From positions 98,698-162,697 of the forward strand of contig JAISLW010000268.1 of NCBI GenBank assembly GCA_031277105.1: a DNA stretch of 64,000 nucleotides, read 5' to 3'. Shown here piece by piece: positions 3,207-54,161 of this stretch. How positions within the stretch are numbered: the stretch's first letter is position 1; every line of letters starts with the position of its first letter. The DNA is from Planctomycetaceae bacterium. Lineage in GTDB: Bacteria; Planctomycetota; Planctomycetia; Pirellulales; Thermoguttaceae. A program made the translations under genes and the position numbers. A model generated the notes under the pieces. The model had not been told where the DNA came from, ran no database searches, and worked only from the letters and a program-made list of their open reading frames with translations.

Positions 3207-4100
3207 TTATTCTTTTATATTTTCTACTGGCGTTTGTGAGTTTGTCATATATGTTTTTCCGGTGATTTCACCTGTATAGAAGTCTTCGTTTAGAAATCGT
3301 AATAATTGTTTAATGTCTTTTTTGTTTTCTGGGAATACGATAGTGTTGTTGACATTTTTTATATTTATGCTGTATTTTTTTGCTTTTTTTTGTATTGTTT
3401 CGATGTTTTTTATTTTTTCGATGTTATTTTGAGTAATGATAGACGTGATTTGTTTCCTTGCCCAATCGTCAACGTTATCTATTATGTTTTGGGTATTTTT
3501 ACACGTGAATATTTTATTTTTTAGTAATGATGTGATTTGTGCATCAGTTGCGTTCTTGAAATAATCGGTTAGGTTGAGAAATCTTTTTACAATTTCGTAT
3601 GATCTGAAATAGAGTTTTTGTTCTTTGTACGTTGCTACTAATTTGGAGTCGATAATGAATCCAGGGTTGTTTAATTGAGTGAAAGTGCTATTAGAAAAAA
3701 TGAAAATAAATTTATTTTTTTCTATTGTTTTGGCGGCTGTAGAATATTGGAATAGAATGTTGCTATTTCTTTGTTGGTCTGTATCTACCGCGAAAATGGA
3801 ATGTATTCTATACGTTTCTGTTTTTTTCATTTCAAATGGTTCGATAGAATCTGGTTGGTCAATTGCGTTTTGGTATATTTGGGGTAATTTGTAAGGTTTT
3901 ATGAACAGGATTTCAGCAGGGCTGCATTTGAAATTAGTTTCTGAAAATCGTATTTTTGTGGTATCATTTTTTATGAAATCGTTTAACTGATCGTCAAATA
4001 TATTTGCTAGTGCGTTAGTTACATCATCAGCCATGTTGATGCGTTTAATCGTCAATCCTTGTTTTGTCGTTCCAGTTATCGTAACGTAAAACTTCTTCAT
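3207..4100 (-). CDS. KwaB-like (DUF4868-like) protein candidate
   Basis: 297 aa, with an ATG at 4100 preceded by AGGAGATAACGAAT. Size and sequence pattern (..LYFRSYEIVKRFLNLTDYF.., C-terminal LLRFLNEDFYTGEITGKTY) match my recollection of DUF4868. It follows a 4-TM protein as in Kiwa. Confidence 0.45.
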   Translation of the reverse strand: MKKFYVTITGTTKQGLTIKRINMADDVTNALANIFDDQLNDFIKNDTTKIRFSETNFKCSPAEILFIKPYKLPQIYQNAIDQPDSIEPFEMKKTETYRIHSIFAVDTDQQRNSNILFQYSTAAKTIEKNKFIFIFSNSTFTQLNNPGFIIDSKLVATYKEQKLYFRSYEIVKRFLNLTDYFKNATDAQITSLLKNKIFTCKNTQNIIDNVDDWARKQITSIITQNNIEKIKNIETIQKKAKKYSINIKNVNNTIVFPENKKDIKQLLRFLNEDFYTGEITGKTYMTNSQTPVENIKE

Positions 4101-4632
4101 ATTCGTTATCTCCTGCGTCTATGTAAACGAAGTTCCACAATTCGCGTACATTTAATGTTTGCTTTTGTATTCGGTGCGTTTTGTTTGAGAGTAACATTCC
4201 GGTGTTTCCTGCTGTTGTTTTAATTTCGTAGAAGTGATAACCGAATAAACCTATCAACGGGTTGAAATGGAACGTGTTTGTGTGGAAAACGCACAAAATT
4301 AAAATGACCATCACGATTATTGAAACAAATGAATTGTTTCGTAAATCTATTGTACCGTTAGAAACAACGGGTAACAAGTATGCGATCATGTACGCTAACG
4401 TTTCTTTGTCGGTTGACGTAATGGCGATGATGTGTATTGGTTCTTTTGCCGCTTGGGGCGCTATATTGTAAATGACGATGTAACAAGCGATTACTAGCGC
4501 TAGGGCGATAACGGTGAGTATTATAGGCAATACGCAACTATTATATTTATCGAAATCGCAGGCTGCGAAAACAAATAATATCGGCGATAAAGAAGTAAGA
4601 ACGAATAACAATTTGACTATTTGACTTAACAT
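4045..4632 (-). CDS. four-pass membrane protein, KwaA-like candidate (alternative: cyclic-nucleotide-gated effector)
   Basis: 195 aa with about 4 hydrophobic helices, then a short beta-rich tail (NPLIGLFGYHFYEIKTTAGNTGMLL). Its 3' end overlaps the next gene by 56 nt. Confidence 0.45.
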   Translation of the reverse strand: MLSQIVKLLFVLTSLSPILFVFAACDFDKYNSCVLPIILTVIALALVIACYIVIYNIAPQAAKEPIHIIAITSTDKETLAYMIAYLLPVVSNGTIDLRNNSFVSIIVMVILILCVFHTNTFHFNPLIGLFGYHFYEIKTTAGNTGMLLSNKTHRIQKQTLNVRELWNFVYIDAGDNEYEEVLRYDNWNDKTRIDD

Positions 4633-4753: not shown

Positions 4754-5713
4754 TTATATTTCATTTTTATCGTATGATTTTATGATGTTTCGTTGTTGTT
4801 CAAAGTTTTTTGGTATGCTTTTGAAGTTATTTGTTTTATTGTTTTCAATGAAAGGTTTAATGAAGTCTGACGGTTTTGTACGTTTTGCGATTGTGTTGCA
4901 GAATTTAACGATTGATTTGCAATCGCATGGCGCTGCGTTATTTTCCCACTGATTTTCAATGGTTTTGTCGTTGAACATGGAAAGCCAGAATACGGGATAC
5001 GGTTTTCCTGAAAAGACTCCTTTTAGATCGTGGTATCCTGCGAATTTTATTTTTGATTCGATGAATTTGAGTAAAGTGTTTTGTTCTTTTAATAAGGAAT
5101 CGGCAATCATCCATAACAAGTCTAGCGATATGACTAATTTATGTGAAGTAGCGAATTTTGTTAATCTGAATCCGCAATCTATCGAGATGCCTACGAAATC
5201 GATGGAGTCGTTATTTTTTTGGTTTGTACTTGTTGCTGATTTTGGCATTAGTACGATTCTGTTATTTACAGGAAAACCTGCGATCCATGCAGTACCTTTG
5301 CAACGTGGTTTTATTTTTTGTTTTTCGAGAAAATCGTTGTAATTTGTGATTGTTTGATAGAACGCTCTTATATGCTCTAATGTTTGTCTTGGGTCGGTCA
5401 ACGGTGCGTAGAATAATATTTCATCGCCTACGTATTTCCATAACACAGGGTATAATGGTTTATAAATAGTTGTACTATCGTCAATTGCGCTATATTGTTG
5501 TAGAAATTGTATTGGGAAGTTTTTATAAAACGTTTTGAACGTATCGCACCAATCGATGTCGTTATGTTTTTTTCTAGTTTCAGATTTATACGCTGTTGAA
5601 CCTTCAATATCAACCGAAAAGAAAATACACATACACCAGTTATTGTCCTTTTCCGCTTTCCTAACAATTGCTTCGGATTCCTTTGCGTATTTGTTTGTTT
5701 TTATTTTAACCAT
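4754..5713 (-). CDS. class III nucleotidyl cyclase-fold protein (cyclase homology / palm domain)
   Basis: Four motifs in cyclase order. FFSVDIEGST matches F-x-D-I-x-G-[FS]-T (first metal Asp). WKYVGDEILFY matches K-x-x-GD (second metal Asp). DFVGISIDCGFRLTKFA matches G-x-x-V-N-x-A-x-R-L. GYHDLKGVFSGKPYPVFWL matches the L-K-G...V-Y-x-L end of the CHD. Confidence 0.65.
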   Translation of the reverse strand: MVKIKTNKYAKESEAIVRKAEKDNNWCMCIFFSVDIEGSTAYKSETRKKHNDIDWCDTFKTFYKNFPIQFLQQYSAIDDSTTIYKPLYPVLWKYVGDEILFYAPLTDPRQTLEHIRAFYQTITNYNDFLEKQKIKPRCKGTAWIAGFPVNNRIVLMPKSATSTNQKNNDSIDFVGISIDCGFRLTKFATSHKLVISLDLLWMIADSLLKEQNTLLKFIESKIKFAGYHDLKGVFSGKPYPVFWLSMFNDKTIENQWENNAAPCDCKSIVKFCNTIAKRTKPSDFIKPFIENNKTNNFKSIPKNFEQQRNIIKSYDKNEI

Positions 5714-6266
5714 TTTTATTTTTTTGCCATTCTATTCTGCTTTCTATTATTTTTTGTGGTAATAGGAAAAAAGGTATCCACCAATTTATGTCTTGTTTGT
5801 ACATTTTTTCGGCTTTTTCTACTAGATCGGTAGGCATCAGAAAACCTAATGCAAATGCGTGGGCTTCCTGTTCAATTCTGGTATTTCCTTTATGACATGC
5901 ATAACATCTACCTTTGCTTGAGTGCAAAATATAATGGGCATACTCATGTATCATTTTGTATCGTTTGGTAATATCCAATACGTGCATAGGAATAATTATG
6001 TCAAATAATTTATCTTTATGTACGTAAATAGTTGTATCGAAAATGTCCTGATGTTTTTTGAATTGTAACATGTCAATGTAATGGATTTCACCTTTTTCTG
6101 ATTCGATAAATTCGTGTATTTCGCTGGGAGTCAAGACGCGTTTGTTTGATTTATTAATTTTTTTACCTAATGTTTCGCCTTCTTGAAATATTTCACGTAG
6201 GTTACGGTTGCACTTGACCATCGGTTTGTAATTTGATTTTATTTTTAATAAGTTTTTTAATGTCAT
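5706..6266 (-). CDS. ImmA/IrrE-family (M78, COG2856-like) zinc metallopeptidase
   Basis: HEYAHYILH (HExxH) followed by EQEAHAFALGFLMP, the family's E-x-x-A-N-x-F-A-x-x-L-L-M-P block. Strong SD (AAAGGAGTATTAAA-ATG). Its stop overlaps the cyclase start by 8 nt. Confidence 0.8.
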   Translation of the reverse strand: MTLKNLLKIKSNYKPMVKCNRNLREIFQEGETLGKKINKSNKRVLTPSEIHEFIESEKGEIHYIDMLQFKKHQDIFDTTIYVHKDKLFDIIIPMHVLDITKRYKMIHEYAHYILHSSKGRCYACHKGNTRIEQEAHAFALGFLMPTDLVEKAEKMYKQDINWWIPFFLLPQKIIESRIEWQKNKNG

Positions 6267-6446
6267 TTTAATACTCCTTTGACGTATTTTTACACTTTGG
6301 TAGCGTTTAAATACATCGTAAATGTTTTTTTTGTTGGGGGAAAACGCATAATTTGCGAAACGAATTATTACATTTAAGAAAAACAGGTCAACTTATAGGT
6401 ATTGTATTTGGCGCAATATGTTTATTTGATTGTGTCATGTTTTTAT

Positions 6447-6725
6447 TTAATGTGAAGTGTTTACGTTATGGAGTATCATTCTTGTAATAATGGGCGATTC
6501 GAGTGGCTGTTTTCCTTTGTTTTTTTGTTTTACGTTGGGTATATACTTTTTTGCTAGGACGAGTCCTAGTAGTAATGAGTTCGCAATAATTACGTACTGT
6601 AAGTACAATCTTATATTTGATTCAATGTTGAACAGGGTTTTATAGGTTTGGTTTTGGTCTTTTTTTATTATGATTTTTTGGACGGTTTGTTGCATTTTTT
6701 TTGATTTATTTTTCGTCTGATTCAT
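6447..6725 (-). CDS. small basic single-pass membrane protein, hypothetical
   Basis: 92 aa, Lys-rich with one hydrophobic helix (YVIIANSLLLGLVLA). Overlaps the upstream ORF by 20 nt. Confidence 0.4.
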   Translation of the reverse strand: MNQTKNKSKKMQQTVQKIIIKKDQNQTYKTLFNIESNIRLYLQYVIIANSLLLGLVLAKKYIPNVKQKNKGKQPLESPIITRMILHNVNTSH

Positions 6726-6987
6726 CGCGGTTTTGTATTTTGTTTACGAGTAATTTTCGGATTGACCATGCAGGTACAAGTCCGATACAACCGTTGAGCC
6801 TTATTTCCATATATTGGTAATCAGCATAATTGATGGTTGGGTCGGTTATTCCAAGCCATCTTAATTCATCTCTTGCAGCAAACAATTTGTACTTTATTGC
6901 AGACAATATTACAGGGCAAATTAGACCGTAATACGTGCAAAAAACCGTAAAAGCGATCATTAAAACCCAAAAACAAATTTCTAACAT
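6706..6987 (-). CDS. small membrane protein, hypothetical
   Basis: 93 aa with two N-terminal hydrophobic helices. Confidence 0.45.
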   Translation of the reverse strand: MLEICFWVLMIAFTVFCTYYGLICPVILSAIKYKLFAARDELRWLGITDPTINYADYQYMEIRLNGCIGLVPAWSIRKLLVNKIQNRDESDEK

Positions 6988-7190
6988 ATACTTATTATTC
7001 CTTCGATGGTTGTTTGGTTGCTGTTTTCGGTATAATCGACATTTTTATTATACGGTGTGAGAAAAAATGGTCAATTGTGTTGTTTTACGTTTGTTGTCGT
7101 TGCGTTGTGTTTGTTGGCGTTATTATACCGTGTGCTTAAAAACGGTCAATTGCGGGTTGTTATGTTTGTTAGATTGTAATTGTGTATTAT

Positions 7191-7492: not shown

Positions 7493-7855
7493 TTAAGTTT
7501 GTCTGAAAATGTAATCGAATAATTCATCTATATCTTTTTGCGGATTTGTTATTAACATTGATTTCGGTTCTGTCAATTGGATGGCGTTTGCTCTTGTTGT
7601 TTGGAATTGTTTTAATGCGTTTAGCGTAATAATGTTTTTGTCTTTGACTAGTTTTGAAAAATGTTGTTTTGTCGATTCGATTTGGTCTAGCGGTTGGTTT
7701 TTTCCGAAAATAGATTTAATTCTTTTGCGACATGATTTGACCATTTTAATTTCACTGAAATTTAATTCTGGACAAATTACTATTACGCCGAGATTGCAAA
7801 CTTCCATCCTAGTCGCATCTGGACAATACTGAATTACGCTGTAGTAACCTTGCAT
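7493..7855 (-). CDS. DUF3037-like protein
   Basis: N-terminus YYSVIQYCPDATRMEVCNLGVIVICPE resembles the Y-S-V-x-R-Y-x-P-D...E-x-x-N-x-G-V-V signature I recall for DUF3037. Confidence 0.45.
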   Translation of the reverse strand: MQGYYSVIQYCPDATRMEVCNLGVIVICPELNFSEIKMVKSCRKRIKSIFGKNQPLDQIESTKQHFSKLVKDKNIITLNALKQFQTTRANAIQLTEPKSMLITNPQKDIDELFDYIFRQT

Positions 7856-8134: not shown

Positions 8135-9022
8135 TTAGATTTTTGTCACATTGACTATACCTAATGATTGCAATTTTTGTAAGCATTCGTCACGTTCTCT
8201 GCATCGTTCCAGAGATTTCCATGACGGGTCTTGGGCTTCAATGAATTGGTTTTCGGTTGCTGGAATTTGTCCTGTTTTTGCAAGTTTGGTAATTATGGCT
8301 TGGTCTAATTTACTCAATTGCATTGATTGCAATTGAAAATCTAAAAATGCTTCCCAGCAATACGGGAATAACGGTTTGACTATTTTTTCGCCGATAATTG
8401 TCGCATATTGTCTGATTTCATATTGGGCGCTCGCTTCCATCCGCAAACCTAAAAACCTGAATAAATTATGCAAATTGATTTTCCAATACGCTTCCGTATA
8501 AGTTGAGAGCGGCAAATCTTTTCTTGCCTGTTCTCTCGCTACGCCGCTTGCAATCCGATTTTCATACAAATTTCTTGCGATGTTGTGAAATTCGCTTTCC
8601 TTGTCAGTCAACTCTTTACCAATAACTTCATCAAAATTACCGCAACTTCCTTGTCGATTAGTTTCCGATTGTTTACGCCATTGGTCTGGTTCTAGCGAAT
8701 AAGCTGAATCAATCGCTATTGAATATCGCGTACTGTATTCGTTGACAGTCGCCGTGCGGTGCCGAATCCATTGCCGCCAACAATCCATCGGCACACGTAC
8801 CAATAATTTTAATTCCGCCATTTCAAACGGAGTCGTATGACGATGCCTGAATAAATATCGCAACAACGTCCGGTCATCCGATGATTTTTTCGTACCTTCA
8901 CCGTAACACACTCTAGCCGATTGAACGATAGCCGAATCATCACCCATCACATCAACTAGACAAACAAAACCATCGTTCAAAACCGGAAATTTTAACCATT
9001 TCAATTCATTTACTTTTTCCAT
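8135..9022 (-). CDS. thyX: flavin-dependent thymidylate synthase ThyX
   Basis: ThyX signature RHRTATVNEYSTRY (RHR-x7/8-S-x-RY) plus a second RHRHTTPFE block. 295 aa. Confidence 0.9.
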   Translation of the reverse strand: MEKVNELKWLKFPVLNDGFVCLVDVMGDDSAIVQSARVCYGEGTKKSSDDRTLLRYLFRHRHTTPFEMAELKLLVRVPMDCWRQWIRHRTATVNEYSTRYSIAIDSAYSLEPDQWRKQSETNRQGSCGNFDEVIGKELTDKESEFHNIARNLYENRIASGVAREQARKDLPLSTYTEAYWKINLHNLFRFLGLRMEASAQYEIRQYATIIGEKIVKPLFPYCWEAFLDFQLQSMQLSKLDQAIITKLAKTGQIPATENQFIEAQDPSWKSLERCRERDECLQKLQSLGIVNVTKI

Positions 9023-9051: not shown

Positions 9052-9363
9052 TTATTCGTTTAAAACGCTTTGTATTTTTGTTTTGGATTGTACGCCTGTT
9101 AATATGTTTTTGACGTTGCCGTTGTCAAAAAGTATAACCGTAGGCAACATGTTGATCTTATACTTGTCCGCAATCGCAGGCGCTATATTTACATCAATTT
9201 GACAAACCAAAATTTCATCTGCATATTCCGCAGCGATTTGTTCCATTACGGGAATCATTACGCGACACGGCGTACACGTTTGACTAGTAAATTCAACCAA
9301 TACAGGCAACGCAGACCGCAAAACTATCGTTTGAAAATCTATTTCCGTTACGTTTATCATCAT
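9052..9363 (-). CDS. thioredoxin-like protein
   Basis: CxxC active site in thioredoxin context (VLVEFTSQTCTPCRVMIPVMEQIAAEY), then LPTVILFDNG. The start is moved to ATG 9363 (MMINVTE), which removes the overlap with ORF 9380..9769 and gives a typical ~104 aa. Confidence 0.75.
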   Translation of the reverse strand: MMINVTEIDFQTIVLRSALPVLVEFTSQTCTPCRVMIPVMEQIAAEYADEILVCQIDVNIAPAIADKYKINMLPTVILFDNGNVKNILTGVQSKTKIQSVLNE

Positions 9364-9379
9364 TTTTACCCACGTCTTT

Positions 9380-9769
9380 TTAGTGTAATAAAGCAAGATC
9401 AAACTCGTCCAAGTAAGCGTCATACGAAAAATTTCGCCAATAATGACTCTGCCAAATATGATCAAAACGGGCGCCAATTCTTATTAAATGAAAAATGAAC
9501 ATAGGGAACGCTTTCGCCAAATCAATCATGTCGTGCGAAGCCGCTGTCCATCTTGCCCGATGAACTTCGTAATACTTTTGACATGAGTCAAAATTCTTTA
9601 TCCTAAATATTGACATTAACGTTTGACCATCCGTTAATTTGAAATTAAATACATCAGCCATCAAAAAACCTTCGTCCATCTTATCCACTTCGCTATCGCT
9701 ACAATCATCAATGTAATACTCTAATTGCAATCTGTAAGTGAATTTGTTTTCCGCATCTGAAACAAACAT
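9380..9769 (-). CDS. hypothetical protein
   Basis: 129-aa ORF. Its ATG overlaps the stop of the small upstream ORF (TAATG). Confidence 0.5.
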   Translation of the reverse strand: MFVSDAENKFTYRLQLEYYIDDCSDSEVDKMDEGFLMADVFNFKLTDGQTLMSIFRIKNFDSCQKYYEVHRARWTAASHDMIDLAKAFPMFIFHLIRIGARFDHIWQSHYWRNFSYDAYLDEFDLALLH

Positions 9770-38519: not shown

Positions 38520-38592
38520 TATTCAAAAACTTTGCATAAACAATTTGCCGTCGTCATTTAAGTCGTTCAATTCAAGACAAATTTCATCGGGA
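38509..38592 (-). repeat. 84-nt direct repeat B, copy 1 (3' end of ABC ATPase gene plus start of next gene)
   Basis: 82/84 identical to 41587..41670. Confidence 0.95.
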
Positions 38593-40283
38593 TTAAAAGA
38601 ATAAAGCGAACCGTCGTTTTGCGTAGGAATATCTGAGTCAATTAGAGATATAATGTATTGAATATTGTATTGCTTACAAATTGATTTCATTCTATTCAAC
38701 AATCTAATTTTTATTCTGTTGTCTAAACCTTCTATAATTCCATCGTGATAAACGAAACGGAAAAATGATTTTTGCGAATAATAAATTAACAACGCAATAT
38801 CAAACGCCATACAAAGTAATTTTTTATACGAAGTCCCTTCTGATTCCGAAGTTGAGTTTTTATCAATAAAATCAATATATTCGGCGGTAAAATCTATATT
38901 TCCCTTTGTATTTTGTTTTATTGAAATAATAGCGTCCGTACCTACAATATCTTTTAACAATTCATTAAATATTTTATTTATGTCTGCGTGATTTCTTTTA
39001 CCTATTGTTTCTTGAATAGTCTGTATTGTTTTCTGCATTTGATCGCCAATTACTTTTAACTCCTTATTGTACAACGCCGTCTTATCAAGTAATTCTAATT
39101 TTTCATTTAACCTGTCAATATCAGACTCTAATATAGATAATTGTTTTTGATACGTTTTGAATTTTGTATATGTATCTTTTTCAGTCAAAAAAGACAATTT
39201 TTCACTCTTGGCGTTTTCCAGTTCTACAAGTTCCGTATCAATCGAATAAAGTTCCTTTTCTAGTTTTTTCAAATTTTCTTTCAAGAATTTATTTCGTTCT
39301 TCTGAAATAGATCTGTTAAATTTTTCTAACTCGTCGTATTGTTTTTTTAATTTATCTGGAAAGTATAAATTTACTTCGTCAAAAAGCGTTTTTAATTTTT
39401 GAACGTTTATAGTATTTTTTGCGTTTCTTATTGATTCTTCAATTTTAGATATTTCATAATTTACGCGGTATCGGTCTGTATGCAACGTTTGAATTTTGAA
39501 ATCTAATTGTTCAATAATCTCTTTTGAAATATTCTTGTCTTGTAAGAAAAAATTAAATTTATCTATTGTTTTTTCTGCTATTATTTTTTCTCTTTGTTTT
39601 ATATCGAGTAAACTTAACAATTTATCTTTTTCTGTAATATCAATATTTGCGTCTTGTTTTAATATGTCAATAGTGTCTTTTATCTTTTTTGCTTTTTGTT
39701 CCAAGTCTGCTTTATGCTTGATTATGTCGGCGTTAAAACCTAACGCATCAAACACAAACGGTTTCCAATCGCTATGTTTTCCCTTAAATTTATTTAACTT
39801 AAAAACGTATGAATAATCTTGTTGAGTCCTTAAAAAATAAGTGATAGACTGCCTGTAAGACCAATTAGTTAAAACATCAAAATTTAAGTAATCTTTAAGT
39901 TTTTCTTTTGCTTTGTCAAACGTCAATTCAGTTTCGTCCCAGACAACAGGCGCAATAAAATCGTTTAATTCAAAATCGTTTTGCTTAAAAGATATTTTTG
40001 AAGCCGTATTTACGCCGCGTTTGATTACAAGATATTTTCCGCTGTTGAGTTTTATTTCTAAATAAAAAGTTTGATCCGAAAATATTGAATTGAACAAGAA
40101 ATGGTCGGCGGTAAATCTACCTAGCAACAAAAAATCAATTACGTGAATGAGCGACGTTTTACCCAAGTTGTGCGTATCAGTCTTGTTGGTTTTATCTTGT
40201 ATCGTCGCCAAGACTACGTTAAAATGTTCGTTAAATTTTACGTTCTTAAAATTCTTATCAGAAAATATTTTTACCAGTTTCAT
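38523..40283 (-). CDS. ABC-3C system ATPase (SMC/Rad50-like ABC ATPase with coiled-coil insert, DUF2326-like)
   Basis: N-terminal Walker A in NVVLATIQDKTNKTDTHNLGKTSLIHVIDFLL, a ~300-aa coiled-coil middle, and a C-terminal Walker B/D-loop FFRFVYHDGIIEGLD. Confidence 0.65.
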   Translation of the reverse strand: MKLVKIFSDKNFKNVKFNEHFNVVLATIQDKTNKTDTHNLGKTSLIHVIDFLLLGRFTADHFLFNSIFSDQTFYLEIKLNSGKYLVIKRGVNTASKISFKQNDFELNDFIAPVVWDETELTFDKAKEKLKDYLNFDVLTNWSYRQSITYFLRTQQDYSYVFKLNKFKGKHSDWKPFVFDALGFNADIIKHKADLEQKAKKIKDTIDILKQDANIDITEKDKLLSLLDIKQREKIIAEKTIDKFNFFLQDKNISKEIIEQLDFKIQTLHTDRYRVNYEISKIEESIRNAKNTINVQKLKTLFDEVNLYFPDKLKKQYDELEKFNRSISEERNKFLKENLKKLEKELYSIDTELVELENAKSEKLSFLTEKDTYTKFKTYQKQLSILESDIDRLNEKLELLDKTALYNKELKVIGDQMQKTIQTIQETIGKRNHADINKIFNELLKDIVGTDAIISIKQNTKGNIDFTAEYIDFIDKNSTSESEGTSYKKLLCMAFDIALLIYYSQKSFFRFVYHDGIIEGLDNRIKIRLLNRMKSICKQYNIQYIISLIDSDIPTQNDGSLYSFNPDEICLELNDLNDDGKLFMQSF

Positions 40284-40510
40284 ATCGTTACCATATCCGA
40301 TTGTTGGTTGTAGTTAATTTTGCCTAGTAGATATAAAAACGAAAGCGAATATTCAAACAGATCGCCTATTTCTTTGCCTACTTTTTTAATAATAGCGTTT
40401 TTTAAATCATCATATTTTATTATTCCGCTTCTTGCAATTTCGTACATTATCAAACCTGAAATATACAAAACTGAATATTTTATATCCGTGTGTTTGTCGG
40501 GCGAAAGCAT
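40280..40510 (-). CDS. ABC-3C middle component candidate (small all-alpha protein)
   Basis: 76 aa from ATG 40510 with a strong SD (AAGGAGAATTAATATT-ATG); the track start is GTG. ATGA overlap with the ATPase gene. Confidence 0.5.
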   Translation of the reverse strand: MLSPDKHTDIKYSVLYISGLIMYEIARSGIIKYDDLKNAIIKKVGKEIGDLFEYSLSFLYLLGKINYNQQSDMVTI

Positions 40511-40514
40511 AATA

Positions 40515-41435
40515 TTAATTCTCCTTTTTTCCAATATCACAATTACAGTACATATAGTGTAACAAAATTCGCACTAGTCTTTTTTTGCCCTTCAAGTCGG
40601 CGTTATTATTGACCGTATAATCATAAAACGTTTCTAACAGATTTTCAAATTCCACAAATTCATTTCTTCGTAATGTAATCTTGGCGTTTAACTCGCTTAT
40701 TGTATCGTCGTATAAATCTTTTAATCCAGCGTTAATTGGAGAAACTAAAAAGGTTTTTATTTGATTAAAATATTCAAAATTACGTTTCATAACGTCGTCA
40801 AAATAAGATTTACTTAATTGGTTCAACTCGTTTTTCTTTTCTATCTCAATTTTTGTAAAATCAATAAGATTAGGCAAGACTGTTGTTTTCTTAAAAGTTT
40901 CGTTTATTGCTATAATAATTTCTTTTAGGTCAGATTCGTCAAATTCTAGTGGATTCAGTAGATTCTTGAGATTTGCAGTACGTACAATATCAGGATATGT
41001 TTGTAAAAGTTGTTGTATTTTCTCATTGGCGATAATCTCATAAACAACGTTTTGTTCATTAAATAACTCGGCTATTTTGCCGTCTTGAACTCCTGTTAGT
41101 TTTCTGTTAGTAAACAATAAATAATAATCTAATTCGCCGTTCTGTTTTAACGTTTGAATAGAGATTATTTCGTTTTTCAAGATAGTATAAAAATCGCTGT
41201 CCGAGCAACTCGCATTTTCTTTAGTTGTATGTTTTGCTTGAATAATTATTTTTCCATCCCAAGGTTTAGACTCGCTTGGAAAACAATTCGCCTGTCCAAT
41301 AAAGCGCCCGTCTTTTCCGCCGTCTTTGCCTTTAGTAAACGGGATAATTGCTTCGCCTAATATTTTATTACAAATGAGTATTACAAGTTTTTCAAACTCG
41401 TCATCATTTAATTCTTGCAATGGAAATTGACTCAT
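40515..41435 (-). CDS. ABC-3C effector candidate: N-terminal Mrr-like PD-(D/E)xK restriction-endonuclease fold plus helical C-terminal domain
   Basis: DDEFEKLVILICNKILGE...GKDGGKDGRFIG...GKIIIQAKH fits the F-E-x-L-V...G-x-D-x-G-x-D...[VI]-Q-x-K nuclease core. Confidence 0.6.
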   Translation of the reverse strand: MSQFPLQELNDDEFEKLVILICNKILGEAIIPFTKGKDGGKDGRFIGQANCFPSESKPWDGKIIIQAKHTTKENASCSDSDFYTILKNEIISIQTLKQNGELDYYLLFTNRKLTGVQDGKIAELFNEQNVVYEIIANEKIQQLLQTYPDIVRTANLKNLLNPLEFDESDLKEIIIAINETFKKTTVLPNLIDFTKIEIEKKNELNQLSKSYFDDVMKRNFEYFNQIKTFLVSPINAGLKDLYDDTISELNAKITLRRNEFVEFENLLETFYDYTVNNNADLKGKKRLVRILLHYMYCNCDIGKKEN

Positions 41436-41503
41436 TTTTAAACAATCCTTTCAATAATCTACTGTACCTTAATCGTCATTTTTGACATATAGTCAATTGC
41501 AAA

Positions 41504-41573
41504 AATTATACAGATTATCGAACAACAAGCAAATACCAAAAAAAATTCGTCCTATTGATTCTGTATTTTGTCG
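41504..41573 (-). repeat. 70-nt direct repeat A, copy 1 (upstream of the ABC-3C cassette)
   Basis: 70/70 identical to 43372..43441. Confidence 0.95.
41505..41532 (-). promoter_or_regulatory. sigma70-type promoter inside repeat A (TTGCTT-16 nt-TATAAT)
   Basis: Minus strand reads TTGCTTgttgttcgataatctgTATAAT, about 70 nt upstream of the ATG at 41435. Confidence 0.5.
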
Positions 41574-41586
41574 AGTGTTTGCACTA

Positions 41587-41670
41587 TTGACTAACATTAT
41601 TCAAAAACTTTGCATAAACAATTTGCCGTCGTCATTTAGGTCGTTCAATTCAAGACAAATTTCATCGGGA
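41587..41670 (-). repeat. 84-nt direct repeat B, copy 2 (orphan relic of the ABC ATPase 3' end)
   Basis: Begins 2 nt after the stop of the HIRAN gene. Its two differences from copy 1 are both synonymous in the frames used by copy 1. Confidence 0.95.
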
Positions 41671-41671
41671 A

Positions 41672-42322
41672 TTATTTATAAATTCTAATAAAAACTCTGT
41701 TTAATCTACCGTTTTTATCGATGTCTTTGATTTTAATTTGCAAATCTTGACCGCCTTTTTTATAGAATGCTCTTGAATGGACGATTTTTACATAACCTAA
41801 AAATACGTCATTTTTGAATACTTTGACTGCTTTGTTGTCATGTTCATTTTTGGGGTCGTATTCCCATCGTAACATATCGCCTTCTGTCAATAGTTCAGGC
41901 GATACGTTATAACGAGAAATGTCGCAAATTTCACTGATAAATGACACTCCATTTAGAGGCGTGTAATCAGCCAAAAGTTCAAAATTATCAATAGCGAGTA
42001 ATCCTTGCGTGTGTGCTAGCATATAATATTTATCCGACGTGTAACGTTTATCAATTTCCCAATAATCATAATATTTCTGTATGTCTTCCCTAATAGGATT
42101 TATAAGACGATGCCCAAACGTATCTAATACATTCTTGGTATAAGTTTTCGTTAAATCAGAAAAAGCAACATAAGAGGTAAAACCAATTTCATCAGCCTTC
42201 TTTTGGTCAATCAAATAACGAAAACAAAATTCGCCGTTACTTTTTTTTATCTCGCCTACAACATGTCGATCCATGTCATTACTCTGCCGCCAAACTAAAT
42301 ATAAAGAACCCAAATATTTCAT
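41672..42322 (-). CDS. HipA-N-terminal-subdomain-like (HipS-like) + HIRAN domain fusion protein
   Basis: The C-terminal GDMLRWEYDPKNEHDNKAVKVFKNDVFLGYV matches the HIRAN core (G-D-x-L-x-L...N-x-x-D-x-N-A-[IV]-x-V...-L-G-Y-[VI]). The N-terminal LYLVWRQ..HVVGEIKKSNGEFCFRYL resembles the HipA N-terminal domain. Confidence 0.6.
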   Translation of the reverse strand: MKYLGSLYLVWRQSNDMDRHVVGEIKKSNGEFCFRYLIDQKKADEIGFTSYVAFSDLTKTYTKNVLDTFGHRLINPIREDIQKYYDYWEIDKRYTSDKYYMLAHTQGLLAIDNFELLADYTPLNGVSFISEICDISRYNVSPELLTEGDMLRWEYDPKNEHDNKAVKVFKNDVFLGYVKIVHSRAFYKKGGQDLQIKIKDIDKNGRLNRVFIRIYK

Positions 42323-43287
42323 AATAAAACCTCTTTTAATTTATCAAAACGCAATAATATTAATTGTACTATCAACTTTTTTCTGTTGTCAGGTAATTTA
42401 TTTTCATTCAAATTATCAGGTAAATTTTCATCAATTGTATAAATAATTTGACGAATACGATCTTTGTTAAAAACGCTAATAACCCGTTTGATCTCTTGTA
42501 TAACAACATCTTTATATTTTGTATATCCTATAAACATTCGTATTAATTCAAAATGGCTTATCTTTTTATCTTCCCACCTAATTTCACATCGATCATTGTT
42601 TATATACCTATCCAACAATTCCGTTTGTAATAAAAATTTTTCCACATCTTTGTCTAATAATTCACGCCCAAGACAACTACCGCTATCATAGATAGGCGAA
42701 AAAACAACGGTATTGTTATTAGAAGTAGATTTAAGTAAATTTGATAGTTTTCGTATGTTCGATTGTTTTTTATGGTTGTTTATTTCTATAATAAATCCCC
42801 AATTTTCTTGATGTCTGTCGCCATTACCAATTAAACTATCAAAAATAATAGTTTTTATTATCTGGTTTACTTGATTTGCTAACTTGTGCGCTTTTAATGC
42901 ACTCTCAATAAAATGGAATGTGTACTGCGTATATGATTGTTTATTTTCAGGAGCGTATGTATTGTCGTAATTGCGGAGATAGTCAATGATTTCAACAAAT
43001 GTATTATTAGTTTTATCAATCATTGATTTTGAAATACAACCTATTTTATCTTTATTATATGCAATATCATAATGTAAAGTATTAAACCCTAATTCATTAC
43101 CTATTGCCGATGCAATAATTTCCGACCAAAATTCATATCTATATGCATCATTACTTCGTTGTAACGAAGTCTTAAAATAATATAATGATCTATCGTCAGG
43201 GTTTTCAACAATTGCTTTATTACGAGAACCTCTTGCAACTACATATTTTTTTTCAATCCAATCCGAAACGTCATAAAAATTTGCCAT
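42319..43287 (-). CDS. HipA-like Ser/Thr kinase core (HipT-like, lacks the N-terminal subdomain)
   Basis: ARGSRNKAIV, catalytic loop LIGNGDRHQENWGF (D-x-H-x-x-N), and IYDSGSC (DFG-equivalent). ATGA overlap with the HIRAN gene. Confidence 0.65.
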   Translation of the reverse strand: MANFYDVSDWIEKKYVVARGSRNKAIVENPDDRSLYYFKTSLQRSNDAYRYEFWSEIIASAIGNELGFNTLHYDIAYNKDKIGCISKSMIDKTNNTFVEIIDYLRNYDNTYAPENKQSYTQYTFHFIESALKAHKLANQVNQIIKTIIFDSLIGNGDRHQENWGFIIEINNHKKQSNIRKLSNLLKSTSNNNTVVFSPIYDSGSCLGRELLDKDVEKFLLQTELLDRYINNDRCEIRWEDKKISHFELIRMFIGYTKYKDVVIQEIKRVISVFNKDRIRQIIYTIDENLPDNLNENKLPDNRKKLIVQLILLRFDKLKEVLL

Positions 43288-45235: not shown

Positions 45236-46717
45236 TTATTTTAGACCGAAATTTAGCACGGATAAATTGTCGATTTGTTCGGAGTTGTCTTCGGAGATTG
45301 CTTTTGCTCTTGCGGCTTGTGAGTTTTGCAATATTGAGTCCGCTTCCTTGTCGGACATATTCAGGAACATCATTAAAAAATCTTTTGGGCAGATTATTGT
45401 TTCGATGTTGTTAGACAGATATGAGCCGATAAGGTTTAATTTGTTGTTTGCGTTTTCGATTTTTTGTTGGTCGGTTCCGGCGTTCAAGTCGTCCCATTTG
45501 ACAAAGAAAATACCGTCTTTGGGCGCTGGCAATTCGCCGATTTGAATCAGCCGCGTTATAAACGGTTTCAATACGAAAGGCGTTAAATAACGTTTCATAC
45601 GCGTCATTAACGTTTTATTCCATTCGGCTACATCTTGCGAACTTGCCAGATCGCCGCGTTCGGAACCGCAAAATATACGCTTCGGACACGATAGCGCTAT
45701 TGCTATCAATTCAATGTTTATATCAATGTGTTCTCTTGGCGATTGGACTTGCGGGCTTAACGAATTAACGTGAGCGTTGGTCAAACCGAACCAGCGTTGT
45801 AATCCGTTTTCATACGCCGCTATTTGTTTTTTCATACTGTCTAAATCTAATTGCACGCCGGACGTAACATCGTCGACCGCTTCAACGCTGAAACCTGGAT
45901 AAGCGCCTTTATAAAACATTTCGCCGGACGAACCTGCTATTTTGCGTATATCTAAAACGTTGTTATAGACTAATTGTAAACGGGGCATACCGAATACAGT
46001 CGAAGTTTGACGATTATCAGCAAGGTGCAAAACCCGCGTCCAATGCACGTCAAGCGTCCGCATATCAACCATGCCCGTATCGTCTTGACAATTATCAGGA
46101 TCGTTAAATTGAATCCGATATAAAACAGGTTGACCGTAACGCGGGTTAGAAGTATTAGTCTCAATTTGAGAAACCTCAATTTGACTATGCGCAAAAGCAC
46201 GCAAATAAATCAATTGATATTTACCCTGCTTCAACGTTTCGGGCAAATATTCAACGCAATCTATCGGCTCGCTCAAATCTTTACCGTCTGAAACGCCAAA
46301 TAAAATTAAGCCATAAGAACCGATGCCTGATAAAATATCAGCAAGCGTCAACACGCCGTAACATTCAAACAATTCAAACGTCCGTTCTAACTTCTTTTCA
46401 AAATCGCTAGTTGACAATTGGTCTTGATCATAAATTTCAGGTTCGGACAACCAGCATTCATTCGGATAAATTGAAACAACTCGATTCGCAATTGCGTTGC
46501 GGTCGAATAATTTCTTGTACATCAATTTGTTGACTATATCAGGGTATCCGAATTGCGTATCGTAATCGCGGTTTAACGTATTCGTATCAACTTCGCCGTT
46601 TAATCCGGCAAGCAACGACCGTCTGTACAACGCTTGAATTATTTCGTTACGTACTACAACATCGTTTTGCAATTTCTCGTTTTCGATTATTACGTCTTTT
46701 TTCAGATTTTTTGCCAT
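45236..46717 (-). CDS. portal protein candidate (DUF1073-like)
   Basis: 493 aa. The size and N-terminal region (..FGYPDIVNKLMYKKLFDRNAIANRVVSIYPNECW..) match my recollection of DUF1073 portals. A MuF-like gene lies downstream on the same strand. Confidence 0.6.
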   Translation of the reverse strand: MAKNLKKDVIIENEKLQNDVVVRNEIIQALYRRSLLAGLNGEVDTNTLNRDYDTQFGYPDIVNKLMYKKLFDRNAIANRVVSIYPNECWLSEPEIYDQDQLSTSDFEKKLERTFELFECYGVLTLADILSGIGSYGLILFGVSDGKDLSEPIDCVEYLPETLKQGKYQLIYLRAFAHSQIEVSQIETNTSNPRYGQPVLYRIQFNDPDNCQDDTGMVDMRTLDVHWTRVLHLADNRQTSTVFGMPRLQLVYNNVLDIRKIAGSSGEMFYKGAYPGFSVEAVDDVTSGVQLDLDSMKKQIAAYENGLQRWFGLTNAHVNSLSPQVQSPREHIDINIELIAIALSCPKRIFCGSERGDLASSQDVAEWNKTLMTRMKRYLTPFVLKPFITRLIQIGELPAPKDGIFFVKWDDLNAGTDQQKIENANNKLNLIGSYLSNNIETIICPKDFLMMFLNMSDKEADSILQNSQAARAKAISEDNSEQIDNLSVLNFGLK

Positions 46718-49289: not shown

Positions 49290-50687
49290 TTATTCGTATC
49301 GTTTTTTGCGTTGTAACGTCGTTTTGACTAATACGTCGTTCCACACGTCCGCTACAAGTTGTCGAAATTCGTCTTCACGGTTTGAACGTTCTATTAACGT
49401 TATCAATTTTTCTTTCGTTCCCGATAAATTCATTTGCGGTATAGTCAAAGTCCCGCCGGATGCGTTTTTACCGGAAGTTTCTATTGCTTTTTCCGAAAGT
49501 AAATAATCAATACACGAACCGAGATCGTCAATTCCGTAAGTATTGTGGATGTTAAAATTCACTTTGGCGTATTGACCTGTGATTCTGTTTTTCTTGATAC
49601 TCGCTTCGCAGATTGAACCTACAGTCCGTTTAATATTGTTTACGTTTTTTGTCAATTCGCCGACAGATTTCGTCCACAATTCGACGTGCGAATAGAATTT
49701 TAGCGCTTTGCCGCCGCCTGCAATTTTCGGTGCGCCGTAACCGGTTATATTATCCCGCGTCTGCGTAACAATAATTAAAATACTGCCAGTCTTGCGTAAC
49801 CTTGAAACAAAACGGCGTATGTTTTGTGAATTAAATTTCGCTTTACCGTCGCCGTAACTCGCTTTGATCTTGTCCGACTTTTCACCGTTGTCAATTTTAT
49901 CCGCCTTACCCGACAACATCGATTGTATCGCCGATTTGTTACTGTCAAATAATTTCTCATTCGCAAGACTATCCAACGAATCCATCGAATCAAGCACGTA
50001 AATAAACGGTTTTTTTTGTTTTATCTTGTCGTCAAGATACGAATAAAACTCTTCAACTAGCGAACTGTATATCGGCGTACCGTCTTTGTCTTTCGCAGGC
50101 GGCTCGCATCTGCGGGCTAATTTACTGCCAAAATAACGCTCAACGTCAAACAAAGCGCCGTTTTCTACATCATCGTAAATTAAACGATAATTGTCATAAA
50201 CAGGATTATTCGCAGCCTCCGCAAGTATCGAATACGTCAACCACGTTTTACCTGAAGCAGAATCGCCGCATAACCAATAATAAGCGCCAGGCAATATCGA
50301 AGCCTGCCAATTATTCGCTATCGCAAGATTCAATAACGTACTGCCCGTACTCAATAATTTCGTCTTATCGATCCCGTTAGACAATTGCACGCCAAGCATC
50401 GCCTCACGCAACTGTCCCGTTTCAGAATCAGCAGCGCCGTCAACTTTTTTATCGCTAGCCGCATTCGTAACAGATTCAATTACAGGCGTTTCATATTGCT
50501 TGCGCTTTGGTTTGTCAAGTTTGACCGATTCAGTCTTGTCAAGTTTGTCAGAATTATCAGGCGTATTATCGATGCTGTTGTTTTCTGTTTTATTTACGTC
50601 TGACATTTTCACTATTGTTACGTTTGACGGCGTTTCTTTTTTATCTTTTATCTTTTCAGATTTTTCAATTTCTTTTACTTCTACCAT
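49290..50687 (-). CDS. RecA-family recombinase (UvsX/RecA-like) with low-complexity N-terminal extension
   Basis: Walker A LCGDSASGKTW, Walker B FIYVLDSMDSL, and the RecA L2-region block TQTRDNITGYGAPKIAGGGKALKFYSHVEL (compare N-Q-x-R...G-G-x-A-L-K-F-Y-A-S-V-R-L). Confidence 0.75.
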   Translation of the reverse strand: MVEVKEIEKSEKIKDKKETPSNVTIVKMSDVNKTENNSIDNTPDNSDKLDKTESVKLDKPKRKQYETPVIESVTNAASDKKVDGAADSETGQLREAMLGVQLSNGIDKTKLLSTGSTLLNLAIANNWQASILPGAYYWLCGDSASGKTWLTYSILAEAANNPVYDNYRLIYDDVENGALFDVERYFGSKLARRCEPPAKDKDGTPIYSSLVEEFYSYLDDKIKQKKPFIYVLDSMDSLDSLANEKLFDSNKSAIQSMLSGKADKIDNGEKSDKIKASYGDGKAKFNSQNIRRFVSRLRKTGSILIIVTQTRDNITGYGAPKIAGGGKALKFYSHVELWTKSVGELTKNVNNIKRTVGSICEASIKKNRITGQYAKVNFNIHNTYGIDDLGSCIDYLLSEKAIETSGKNASGGTLTIPQMNLSGTKEKLITLIERSNREDEFRQLVADVWNDVLVKTTLQRKKRYE

Positions 50688-51294: not shown

Positions 51295-52428
51295 CTAAAA
51301 CGGCACGTCTTTCAAATAAGCGCCGCCATCGTCGTCTACATCATCGTCTGACCATCGGTCAACGATACTGCTAGACTTCTTTTTTGGCGCCGCCGTTTTA
51401 GCGGACGCTTCATCGCCGCTTTCATCAAAACCGCCTTTAACAATTTTCGATTTCTTTGCAGACGTTTTGTCTTCGTCTTCATCGTCGTCTTCTACAGGTT
51501 TGGTAACAACCGTTTTCTTTGGTTGCGGTTTAATGGGCGCTTCGTCTTCGTCGTTGTCGTTGTCATCGTCATCGTTGCGTACAGGTTTATTGCTTAATTT
51601 TGGTCTCGCAGATTCGCTTTTTGCCGTTTTATTGTTAGCCGATGATTCGTGTTTCCCATCGTCCGAATCGCCTGACCAATCCGAAGTATTGTCGCTGTCG
51701 TCTAGGTGATGGTTATTAAACAATGATTCAATTTCTTTGTACGAAAGTCTAACTAAACAACTGTCAAGATCGACCATTTGATCAAGTATTGATTCGTCGT
51801 ATTTGTTTTTACGTTGTTTGAATTCTATTTGTGTTGCGGCGTAATATTTTTGCTTGTTGGCTAATGCGAATTGACCAATATTTATTTTTAGCGTCGAACC
51901 TACTTCAAGGTCGGCGAAATATTGATAATGTTCATCGTCTTCGTCGGCGTTTTTTATTAAATCGTTCAACTTGTCGCCAAACAAAAAAGTCGGTTGATCT
52001 AAAACGTATTGTTTACCGTCGTCCAAATTAATGACGTTATACAATTCGCGATGTTGCGGTCGATACGCCTTTATTTGCGCTTGTTCTACTGGATCGTTAT
52101 AGTTCAACGTTAAAATATGTTCGCAAATTGGACACGGTTTACCCCAAGTATGTTTTGGGCAAATTATTGACGTAATGTTGCCGCCGACGTTTTTATGGAC
52201 GGCATAATTGCACACGTACCAAAGACCGTCGACGGCGTATTTGTGTTTATCGGGATGTTTCACACGATATGGCAAAACATCCAATTTGACTACGCCTGCT
52301 TCGGTAAATTTCAGGAACATTAAGCCATCCGGCAATTGGACGCAGCCTGTGCCTTTTTTCGGTTGCGTTAAATCTTGAGCGTACTGTTTAGCGCTCAAAC
52401 GATTCGCTTTATGATTCATTCCTACCAT
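51295..52428 (-). CDS. T4 gp32-like single-stranded DNA-binding protein
   Basis: Zn-finger block CPKHTWGKPCPICEHI (compare T4 C-x-x-x-H...C-P-V-C-Q-Y-I), a DQMVDLDS block (T4 EQMVDLS), and a long acidic C-terminal tail. Strong SD. Confidence 0.7.
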   Translation of the reverse strand: MVGMNHKANRLSAKQYAQDLTQPKKGTGCVQLPDGLMFLKFTEAGVVKLDVLPYRVKHPDKHKYAVDGLWYVCNYAVHKNVGGNITSIICPKHTWGKPCPICEHILTLNYNDPVEQAQIKAYRPQHRELYNVINLDDGKQYVLDQPTFLFGDKLNDLIKNADEDDEHYQYFADLEVGSTLKINIGQFALANKQKYYAATQIEFKQRKNKYDESILDQMVDLDSCLVRLSYKEIESLFNNHHLDDSDNTSDWSGDSDDGKHESSANNKTAKSESARPKLSNKPVRNDDDDNDNDEDEAPIKPQPKKTVVTKPVEDDDEDEDKTSAKKSKIVKGGFDESGDEASAKTAAPKKKSSSIVDRWSDDDVDDDGGAYLKDVPF

Positions 52429-53198: not shown

Positions 53199-54161
53199 TT
53201 ATGCGTTTTTCCACGCCATATAACATGCCCACGCTATACCTGCTTTTTTGGAATCGTAAGTATTGTCTAAAAAATAGTGCATACATTTTGCGGATTTATC
53301 GCAATTACTCCAAGCGTTCAACAACGCCGTATTCAACCAGCCTAAAATAGCGTAACGAATAGACTCCGGTTCGTTGTTGTCCAATACGACTTTCAATACT
53401 TTCGCAACTTCTTTCCACGTAGGTTTACGATTCAACGTCGTCAACAATTTACATAAATCCGCTATTGACGCTGTAAACGAAACGTCGCAAGATATAGATT
53501 TCAACCGCGTCTCATCATCAGGCAATTCAAGTAATTGGGCAAGTTTAACCAAACAACGTCTAGCCGAACCTTCCGAATATTTCGCTAATTCCGCTAAAAC
53601 AGTTTCACTCATTTCGCCGCTTTCCTCCAAAAGCACGTGATTACATAACTCTATCAGATCGCTTTCGGGAATAGGCTTGAAAGTCAATTGCGAACATCTG
53701 TTTTTAACAGTCGGCAATAATTTTTGCGGATCGGTCGTACACAAAATAATGTAAGCGTGATTAGGCGTTTCTTCCAATATTTTAAGTAAAGCCGATTGCG
53801 CTTGCGTTGACAACAACGCCGCCTCGTCCATAATCCAACATCGATTACTAGAATCGCCAGATAACGGTTGATAATGAATAGATTCACGGATCGACCGTAC
53901 CATATCTACGCCAGTTGCGTCGGCGGCGTTAATCTCTATTAAATCACGCGGCGGTTTACAACGTAATTTTTTAGCAATCAACCTAGCAAGAGAAGTTTTC
54001 CCGCTGCCGGTCAAACCCGTCAATAATAAAGCATGCGGAACCGCATCCTTATCAAACCAACCTTTGACTATATCCACAATATCATCTTGACCTACAACTT
54101 GCCGGAAATTTTTCGGACGATACTTGCGATACAATTCAACAACCCCATCGCCATCACTCAT
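53199..54161 (-). CDS. AAA+ clamp-loader subunit (RFC / DNA pol III gamma-tau-like)
   Basis: Walker A LLLTGLTGSGKTSLARL, Walker B CWIMDEAALLS, and sensor-1/SRC-like VKNRCSQLTFKP. Confidence 0.8.
   Translation of the reverse strand: MSDGDGVVELYRKYRPKNFRQVVGQDDIVDIVKGWFDKDAVPHALLLTGLTGSGKTSLARLIAKKLRCKPPRDLIEINAADATGVDMVRSIRESIHYQPLSGDSSNRCWIMDEAALLSTQAQSALLKILEETPNHAYIILCTTDPQKLLPTVKNRCSQLTFKPIPESDLIELCNHVLLEESGEMSETVLAELAKYSEGSARRCLVKLAQLLELPDDETRLKSISCDVSFTASIADLCKLLTTLNRKPTWKEVAKVLKVVLDNNEPESIRYAILGWLNTALLNAWSNCDKSAKCMHYFLDNTYDSKKAGIAWACYMAWKNA

Follow-up and report, generated by a model that had tools for sequence, protein, structure and literature searches.

A gene for a zinc metallopeptidase of the M78 (ImmA/IrrE) type and, directly downstream of it, a gene for a protein with the predicted fold of a class III nucleotidyl cyclase together constitute what is, as judged from sequence comparison and structural modelling, probably an undescribed nucleotide-signalling conflict module. 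The pair was analysed in a stretch of 64,000 nucleotides of a Planctomycetaceae bacterium (contig JAISLW010000268.1 of assembly GCA_031277105.1, positions 98,698 to 162,697), which is referred to below, in its entirety, as the window. A preliminary description of this DNA had presented the pair as an M78 peptidase coupled to a class III cyclase-fold protein without a helix-turn-helix (HTH) partner, and that headline holds. In this study, we describe the conservation of the pair across bacteria, phages and plasmids, the predicted fold and active site of the cyclase-like protein and the genes that accompany the pair elsewhere. A mechanism by which the peptidase might control the cyclase-like enzyme is suggested and is weighed against a toxin–antitoxin arrangement and other explanations.

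The gene pair and its conservation

The stand-alone M78 (ImmA/IrrE-type) zinc peptidase is encoded at 6266..5706 on the minus strand (186 aa) and the class III cyclase-fold protein at 5713..4754 on the same strand (319 aa). The two genes share an 8-nt overlap, ATGGTTAA (5706..5713, minus strand), in which the peptidase TAA (5708-5706) and the ATG of the cyclase-like gene (5713-5711) were read from the sequence. The translation of the peptidase gene carries HEYAHYILH and EQEAHAFALGFLMP, while the 319-aa protein contains the four motifs FFSVDIEGST, YVGDEILFY, GISIDCGFRLTKFA and DLKGVFSGKPYPVFWL, which represent the most conserved columns of the cyclase-like family (2266 representative clusters). 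Both open reading frames (ORFs), the overlap and every motif quoted in the preliminary description were confirmed at their positions.

The active-site residues of the peptidase comprise the HExxH motif (H107, E108 and H111), H115 and E132/E134 within an ExEAxxFA motif. The protein matches Pfam PF06114 (Peptidase_M78) at 1.5e-10, exceeding the gathering score, as well as PHROG 87 (metallo-protease), and its product name at NCBI is ImmA/IrrE family metallo-endopeptidase. Its best match among defence models is PADLOC capP (1.7e-9), with an alignment that spans positions 11-123 of the 242-position model; the 186-aa peptidase is a bare M78 domain. The catalytic site is intact in nearly all partner peptidases from related loci (n = 51), with HExxH retained in 50 and the residue equivalent to E132 in 49.

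A genome scan, restricted to one genome per species, yielded 56 loci with the cyclase-like gene, and in 53 of these an M78 gene lies immediately 5′ on the same strand. The 56 loci belong to more than ten phyla, including Planctomycetota, Spirochaetota, several proteobacterial classes, Verrucomicrobiota, Myxococcota, Fibrobacterota, Armatimonadota, Acidobacteriota, Cloacimonadota, Bacillota and Actinomycetota. The peptidase–cyclase order also occurs at all further loci fetched (L001, L004-L006 and L063-L068), namely those of Arcobacter nitrofigilis (L001), three metagenome contigs, two Planctomycetes contigs, phages phiCD27 and LE1, and Leptospira and Mycolicibacterium plasmids. The co-occurrence of M78 and cyclase-like genes, for which the preliminary description had proposed a survey, is conserved elsewhere, and the gene arrangement is far beyond chance. 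A scan of IMG/VR with two peptide patterns gave no match.

The coupling of the two genes is near-obligate and close. Among 57 pairs, 32 have overlapping genes and the remaining 25 are separated by a gap of 0–21 nt. The pairwise distances among the peptidases correlate with those among the cyclase-like proteins (r = 0.63; Mantel test, 0 of 2000), which demonstrates joint inheritance and is compatible with a physical interaction. A second, diverged pair (P0344 and P0002; peptidase 57% and cyclase-like protein 69% identical) is encoded on the same 171,649-bp contig outside the window, and multiple copies per genome were also found in two metagenome-assembled genomes (MAGs), one containing L009 and L010 and the other L031 and L036. 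The peptidase gene is degraded at L014 and the cyclase-like gene is frameshifted at L051. The peptidase is absent at L045, L058 and L062; the cyclase-like genes of L045 and L058 retain the full catalytic set. At L045 (4636-8300) the cyclase-like gene follows a gene for a PIN_12 protein and precedes one for a DUF3800 protein, and this locus may be a variant with a different partner.

Fold of the cyclase-like protein

The 319-aa protein matches no model of Pfam (E <= 1), NCBIfam or PADLOC, and its family matches are limited to two PHROGs of unknown function, one of which is PHROG 18024 (1e-40). A word-indexed search returned 92 relatives, none with a Pfam domain and all of the named ones called hypothetical; the source names encountered for the family all read 'hypothetical protein', with the single exception of 'putative Nudix hydrolase' for a fused form in phage phiCDHM19. 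In a profile search of 1.84 billion representatives, clustered at 50% identity, 2266 clusters were retrieved at E <= 1e-3 and 1339 at E <= 1e-30. A profile built from 58 family members found no PDB chain at E <= 10.

The AlphaFold2 model of the protein, calculated with 58 relatives in the alignment, has a predicted local distance difference test score (pLDDT) of 92.4 and a predicted template-modelling score (pTM) of 0.92, and shows the strand and helix order of class III cyclases. It comprises an N-terminal helix (8-22), a catalytic domain (~25-245) and a C-terminal helical extension (~250-319). A Foldseek comparison with the PDB gave 135 matches at E <= 1e-3, and the best 50 of these 135 are all class III adenylyl or guanylyl cyclases, including CyaC, mammalian C1/C2, Cya2, CyaB, Rv1900c and soluble guanylate cyclase. 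The structural matches include the Pycsar uridylate cyclase 8jsz, and the target-normalised TM-scores of the PDB matches range from 0.6 to 0.77. In a library of viral structures guanylate cyclase domains rank first and GGDEF proteins appear only at E values of at least 0.01. The modelling thus supports a class III cyclase fold for the 319-aa protein, as the preliminary description had claimed. Because the sequence profiles fall short of PF00211, class III membership rests on fold and motif; of the combined profile and structure check that had been proposed, the structural part places the protein with the cyclases and the profile part misses PF00211.

A relationship with mCpol, the signal generator of Panoptes, had also been raised. 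Neither a Cas10 nor a GGDEF palm is present among the best 50 PDB matches, all of which are class III. The mCpol/GGDEF reading was rejected on the fold ranking in the PDB and the viral library, no mCpol structure having been part of the direct comparison.

Active site of the cyclase-like family

The four motifs, which had been described as cyclase motifs, are located at the canonical catalytic positions. In the register given by hhalign, which is not itself significant, D35, D97, K93, D172, D179 and R183 correspond to D256, D300, K296, D365, N372 and R376 of Rv1625c, respectively. We take D256 and D300 of Rv1625c to be the metal-binding Asp residues, K296 and D365 to be the pair that reads adenine, and N372 and R376 to be the transition-state Asn and Arg. 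The secondary structure of the model agrees with this register: D35 ends strand 1 (27-37), D97 lies in the β2–β3 turn between strands 90-95 and 98-105, and D179 and R183 are both on helix 176-187.

Conservation was counted over 272 relatives of the cyclase-like protein, using the ungapped members for each column. The metal Asp D35 is present in 266 of 266 members and the triplet G96-D97-E98 in 271 of 271, while R183 is found in all 272. K93 is Lys in 267 and Arg in four; D172 is Asp in 265, Glu in five and Asn in two; and K231, at the position of the phosphate-binding Lys, is Lys in 246 and Arg in 15. Two features are specific to the family: Asp occupies the position of the transition-state Asn (D179, Asp in 270 of 272 and Asn in two), and the second metal Asp is invariably followed by Glu (GDE). 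Since the adenine-reading Lys/Asp pair is conserved, a purine nucleoside triphosphate (NTP) is the probable substrate.

This pattern is the one that would be expected of an active enzyme. The protein could instead be a non-catalytic scaffold or a nucleotide sensor, with the peptidase as the active component of the pair, and the change from Asn to Asp at a catalytic position would suit such a role; conflict systems with inactive cyclase domains have been described (PMC7159879). We nevertheless consider this very improbable, as 96–100% of the 272 relatives retain both Asp residues of the metal site together with the Lys/Asp pair, the Arg and the phosphate-binding Lys, as in an active enzyme.

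Genes accompanying the pair at other loci

The absence of an HTH partner gene, noted in the preliminary description, is borne out: no HTH family was matched by Pfam in the window ORFs flanking the pair, nor does one occur among the 25 most frequent families listed for 96 immediate neighbours of the pair at other loci. PycTM, the Pycsar membrane effector, is the companion seen most often and was found at five loci (L001, L047, L048, L059 and phiCD27). It is encoded upstream of the pair in Arcobacter (L001), downstream in the three Clostridia loci and convergently in phiCD27, whose gp36 gives a full-length match to the PADLOC PycTM model (2.9e-31). In the same phage (L063, 4375-7040), gp38, annotated as a metallo-protease, is followed by gp37 (528 aa, cyclase-like and with a NUDIX-like C-terminus) and the convergent gp36. 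The three genes gp36, gp37 and gp38 are a Pycsar-like trio that has not been annotated as such. Phages phiC2, CDKM9, phiCDHM19 and phiCD508 carry the cyclase-like gene as well.

A C-terminal NUDIX (pyrophosphohydrolase) domain is fused to the cyclase-like protein at L047, L048, L052 and L057. The C-terminal regions of the L047 and L048 proteins and of phiCD27 gp37 resemble PDC-S07, a single-gene defence candidate. Type IIG restriction-modification genes adjoin the pair at three loci, and on the L065 plasmid the pair lies beside other toxin–antitoxin genes, such as DUF433/PIN. On the Mycolicibacterium chubuense plasmid pMYCCH.02 (L066, 1-5002) a second ImmA/IrrE gene precedes the pair and a divergently oriented gene cluster of Mov34/MPN/PAD-1 (JAB) type adjoins it, which suggests a defence-rich region. 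In phiCD27 the pair is situated in the interval from the lysis genes to the integrase, a classic moron position, and is distinct from the repressor/metallo-protease pair of the phage itself; in phage LE1 the pair adjoins CI.

In LE1 and phiCD27 the pair lies in a region of immunity or lysogeny, which raises an explanation outside defence, namely that the pair is a stress or lifestyle switch of the carrier element, which produces a nucleotide second messenger in response to DNA damage and so feeds general cellular receptors or prophage decisions. Most loci are without a dedicated effector, as would suit a signal of this kind, and a response to DNA damage is established for peptidases of the ImmA/IrrE/CapP type, such as that of IrrE/DdrO. 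On the other hand, a patchy, multi-copy spread across phyla on phages and plasmids is typical of conflict systems, and so are links to PycTM, to NUDIX domains of the PDC-S07 kind and to restriction genes; moreover, phiCD27 already possesses a separate repressor/peptidase switch. We therefore regard a non-defence switch as unlikely.

Proposed mechanism

The peptidases ImmA, IrrE and CapP respond to a signal by cleaving a partner protein. In the mechanism suggested here, an ImmA-like peptidase would be co-produced with, and would control, a homodimeric enzyme with the class III cyclase fold and a nucleotide triphosphate as its substrate. The peptidase would act on the cyclase-like protein itself and not on a repressor; the enzyme is the most economical candidate for its substrate because it is the only constant partner. 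Upon infection or a cue of the DNA-damage type the peptidase would switch the enzyme on, and the enzyme would then make a nucleotide product, probably from a purine NTP, with a presumed role in defence. The product would open a PycTM-type membrane effector where one is encoded and would act without a dedicated partner where none is, as in this window. The links to PycTM imply that the product is diffusible in at least some versions of the module. Here the module lies directly 5′ of an independent Kiwa system, within an accessory cassette of a phage-like genome. That the pair is an autonomous mobile-element module, a peptidase-controlled nucleotide cyclase working in this manner, is a tentative proposal that we consider quite possible, if somewhat short of probable.

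Several observations weigh against this proposal. PF00211 (Guanylate_cyc) does not match the 319-aa protein at E <= 1, and hhalign comparison of the family with the catalytic domain of Rv1625c, taken alone or together with 120 orthologues, gave a probability of only 0.3-0.8%; the domain used is identical to PDB 4p2x at every residue used, and the orthologues, all at least 69% identical to the query, add little to the single sequence. The residue equivalences set out above, being drawn from the modelled fold, from secondary-structure position and from motif register, are correspondingly provisional, and with Asp replacing the transition-state Asn in nearly every member the chemistry may differ from cyclisation. 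The AlphaFold2 model of the peptidase, calculated from an alignment of four sequences, has a pLDDT of 44 and was unusable for a fold search. The genes next to the pair are heterogeneous and often housekeeping, with no family represented in more than four of the 96 immediate neighbours, and in about 90% of loci neither an effector nor a receptor could be recognised beside the pair. The C-terminal extension, which carries a conserved RPFI motif, is missing from the NUDIX-fused forms and is thus no universal cleavage target. Finally, a small first gene, an overlap and a scattered multi-copy distribution fit a toxin–antitoxin pair as well.

A toxin–antitoxin-like arrangement is indeed a serious rival to the peptidase-controlled cyclase. 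The cyclase-fold protein would be a toxin, acting by consumption of NTPs or by synthesis of a harmful nucleotide, and the co-translated peptidase would serve as the antidote by binding it or cleaving it continuously; the toxin would be freed once the supply or the activity of the peptidase drops, by a logic like that of Rosmerta or of enzymatic (type VII) antitoxins. The smaller gene precedes the larger one, with an overlap in 32 of the 57 pairs, a third gene is usually absent, the neighbours are varied and genomes may hold several copies, including the two on this contig. The plasmid-borne pair of L065, beside its DUF433/PIN genes, keeps company that would suit a toxin–antitoxin system, and both the RmrA models of PADLOC and the spr1629 antitoxin models match the peptidase, across its M78 part only. 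Against these points, the M78 antitoxins known so far possess an HTH domain, which the present peptidase lacks, and the presence of PycTM in five loci implies a signal rather than a self-sufficient toxin there. The peptidase-less genes of L045 and L058, a tiny sample and taken from MAGs, keep every catalytic residue, which would be surprising in a lethal toxin and fits activation better than an indispensable antidote. Activation by the peptidase is thus weakly favoured over neutralisation, and a toxin–antitoxin function appears rather unlikely.

The proposal of a peptidase-controlled cyclase can be extended to a widespread and undescribed class of immune or conflict module in which the substrate of an ImmA-like peptidase is the signal-generating enzyme itself and not a transcriptional repressor, cleavage being a proteolytic on-switch. 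In that case the replacement of Asn by Asp, the GDE motif and the repeated fusion to NUDIX domains would point to a product distinct from a plain 3′,5′-cyclic nucleoside monophosphate (cNMP), and in phages such as phiCD27 and that of the window the module would act in competition between phages. We regard this extended version as possible but on balance doubtful.

The cyclase-like family is large, with its 2266 clusters distributed over many phyla, and it includes members in the well studied temperate phages of Clostridioides difficile and in Leptospira plasmids. If the pair is an active, peptidase-controlled cyclase, it would represent a new way of gating nucleotide second-messenger immunity, would extend the ImmA/CapP-type peptidases to a substrate that is not a repressor and would reveal Pycsar-like systems that present detection models miss. 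The module is also experimentally tractable, since it consists of two or three small genes with clear point mutants (D35A, D97A and E108A) and occurs in cultivable hosts, such as C. difficile phiCD27 lysogens and Arcobacter nitrofigilis DSM 7299.

Kiwa genes and phage-like surroundings

The preliminary description had mentioned a transmembrane gene and a DUF4868-like gene after the pair and had considered all four genes as a possible unit. Both genes are present downstream, and they are identified here as components of Kiwa, a known self-sufficient system. The first encodes KwaA, the Kiwa membrane component (4045..4632, minus strand), 121 nt downstream of the cyclase-like gene; it matches the PADLOC model over its full length (1.7e-38) and the NCBIfam model at 1.7e-14, under the cut-off of the latter. 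The second encodes KwaB (DUF4868; 3207..4100, minus strand), with a full-length PADLOC match (1.9e-65) and a Pfam KwaB match (4e-10). From the first kwaB ATG the two ORFs overlap by 56 nt (4045-4100), whereas a start at the internal Met23 (~4034) would leave a 10-nt gap. The two genes are a complete Kiwa system, a neighbour rather than a conserved part of the peptidase–cyclase pair.

As members of a four-gene unit, the peptidase and the cyclase-like protein would be accessory regulators of Kiwa, for example by providing a nucleotide signal that primes KwaA/KwaB. All four genes share one strand, no terminator-like site is found on that strand in the 121-nt gap between the cyclase-like gene and kwaA, and KwaA sits where PycTM does in L047, L048 and L059. 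The same gap, however, contains a weak promoter-like site, and Kiwa is described as complete with two genes (PMC11785009). Kiwa was detected beside the pair in this window only: phmmer with the KwaA and KwaB of the window did not find it beside the pair elsewhere, PADLOC did not find it among the 96 immediate neighbours, and it was not detected at the nearest relatives (L007-L010, L067 and L068). The four-gene reading is unsupported because Kiwa was not detected beside the pair at any other locus examined, and we consider it highly improbable.

The window looks like a large phage genome. On the minus strand lie 79 of its 81 ORFs. The encoded proteins include a tail terminator, an HK97-type capsid, a gp10-like protein and a portal (45236-46717), as well as DNA polymerase A, RecA-like (49290-50687) and gp32-like (51295-52428) proteins, a clamp loader (53199-54161), thioredoxin (9052-9477) and ThyX (8135-9022). 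As the 171,649-bp contig is labelled as a Planctomycetaceae MAG, it may be a prophage or a phage binned together with its host.

The pair and Kiwa occupy an accessory stretch that is preceded by three promoter-like sites, located by a consensus scan. Two are near-identical, near-consensus sigma-70-like sites of the form TTGACC-16 nt-TATAAT on the minus strand (7149-7122 and 7074-7047), 75 nt apart; the 64 kb contain no other match, where 0.03 would be expected. The peptidase gene is preceded by two small ORFs (6987..6706 and 6725..6447), and these sites (7047..7149), which lie upstream of both, may drive the cassette. The third and weaker site, TTGACC-16 nt-AATAAT with a TG (6364..6391, minus strand), lies about 100 nt 5′ of the peptidase start. 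The translations of the two small ORFs contain hydrophobic, membrane-like stretches. Just upstream of the cassette a DUF3037 protein is encoded (7493-7855; Pfam 2e-15), which also matches PDC-M66B, a defence candidate; the nearest HipA-like gene is about 35 kb away from it. A second accessory island (38523-43287) adjoins the portal gene and encodes a DUF2326 protein (38523-40283) and a CTD12 protein (40515-41435), both components of an ABC-three-component system, together with a HIRAN-domain protein (41672-42322) and a HipA_C kinase-like protein (42319-43287).

Comparison with known systems

No description of a peptidase–cyclase pair was found in the literature searched, in agreement with the preliminary description, whose author knew of no such two-gene unit; an earlier computational mention is possible. 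An August 2026 survey of immune cNMP cyclases mentions no peptidase-linked or NUDIX-linked clade.

Rosmerta (RmrT/RmrA) and the spr1629-type HTH-M78 antitoxins resemble the pair in being two-gene, peptidase-containing modules of defence islands, and the RmrA models match its M78 core. The RmrA models, however, have 357-400 positions, compared with the 186 residues of the peptidase, and only the M78 part aligns; RmrA itself has an HTH region N-terminal to its M78 part. The RmrT models of PADLOC do not match the 319-aa protein. Identity with Rosmerta was ruled out, given that the RmrA match is confined to the M78 core and that the partner lacks an RmrT match. As for Kiwa, the downstream genes of the window encode full-length KwaA and KwaB but lie outside the conserved peptidase–cyclase module.

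The cyclase-like protein has the predicted fold and the order of strands and helices of class III cyclases such as Rv1625c, CyaC and CyaB, and its two metal Asp residues, Lys/Asp pair, Arg and phosphate-binding Lys occupy equivalent positions. It differs from them in falling below profile detection, in having an Asp for the transition-state Asn and the Glu of GDE, in carrying an extra C-terminal helical extension of about 70 residues, or a NUDIX domain instead, and in its near-obligate coupling to a peptidase.

Like CapP/CapH, ImmA/ImmR and IrrE/DdrO, the pair includes an M78 protein with an intact HExxH...E site, and such peptidases are found beside nucleotide-signalling immune genes. Unlike in those systems, there is no adjacent HTH/XRE gene and the peptidase is a bare M78 domain; its partner is an enzyme encoded downstream, whereas that of the CapP/ImmA type is a repressor encoded upstream. 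Pycsar and Pucsar, in which a class III-type cyclase is combined with a PycTM or PycTIR effector, likewise place a signal generator of cyclase fold on mobile or defence loci, and five loci related to the pair encode a full-length PycTM. The constant partner of the present enzyme is nevertheless a peptidase, with no effector in about 90% of loci, and the window contains Kiwa and no PycTM. To judge from the Lys/Asp pair, the substrate is more likely to be a purine than a pyrimidine, and the PycC models of PADLOC gave no match in about ten family members tested, including the window protein and the PycTM-adjacent relatives. By analogy, the module appears to be most like Pycsar/Pucsar in its signal generator and occasional effector, and like the CapP/ImmA systems in its peptidase.

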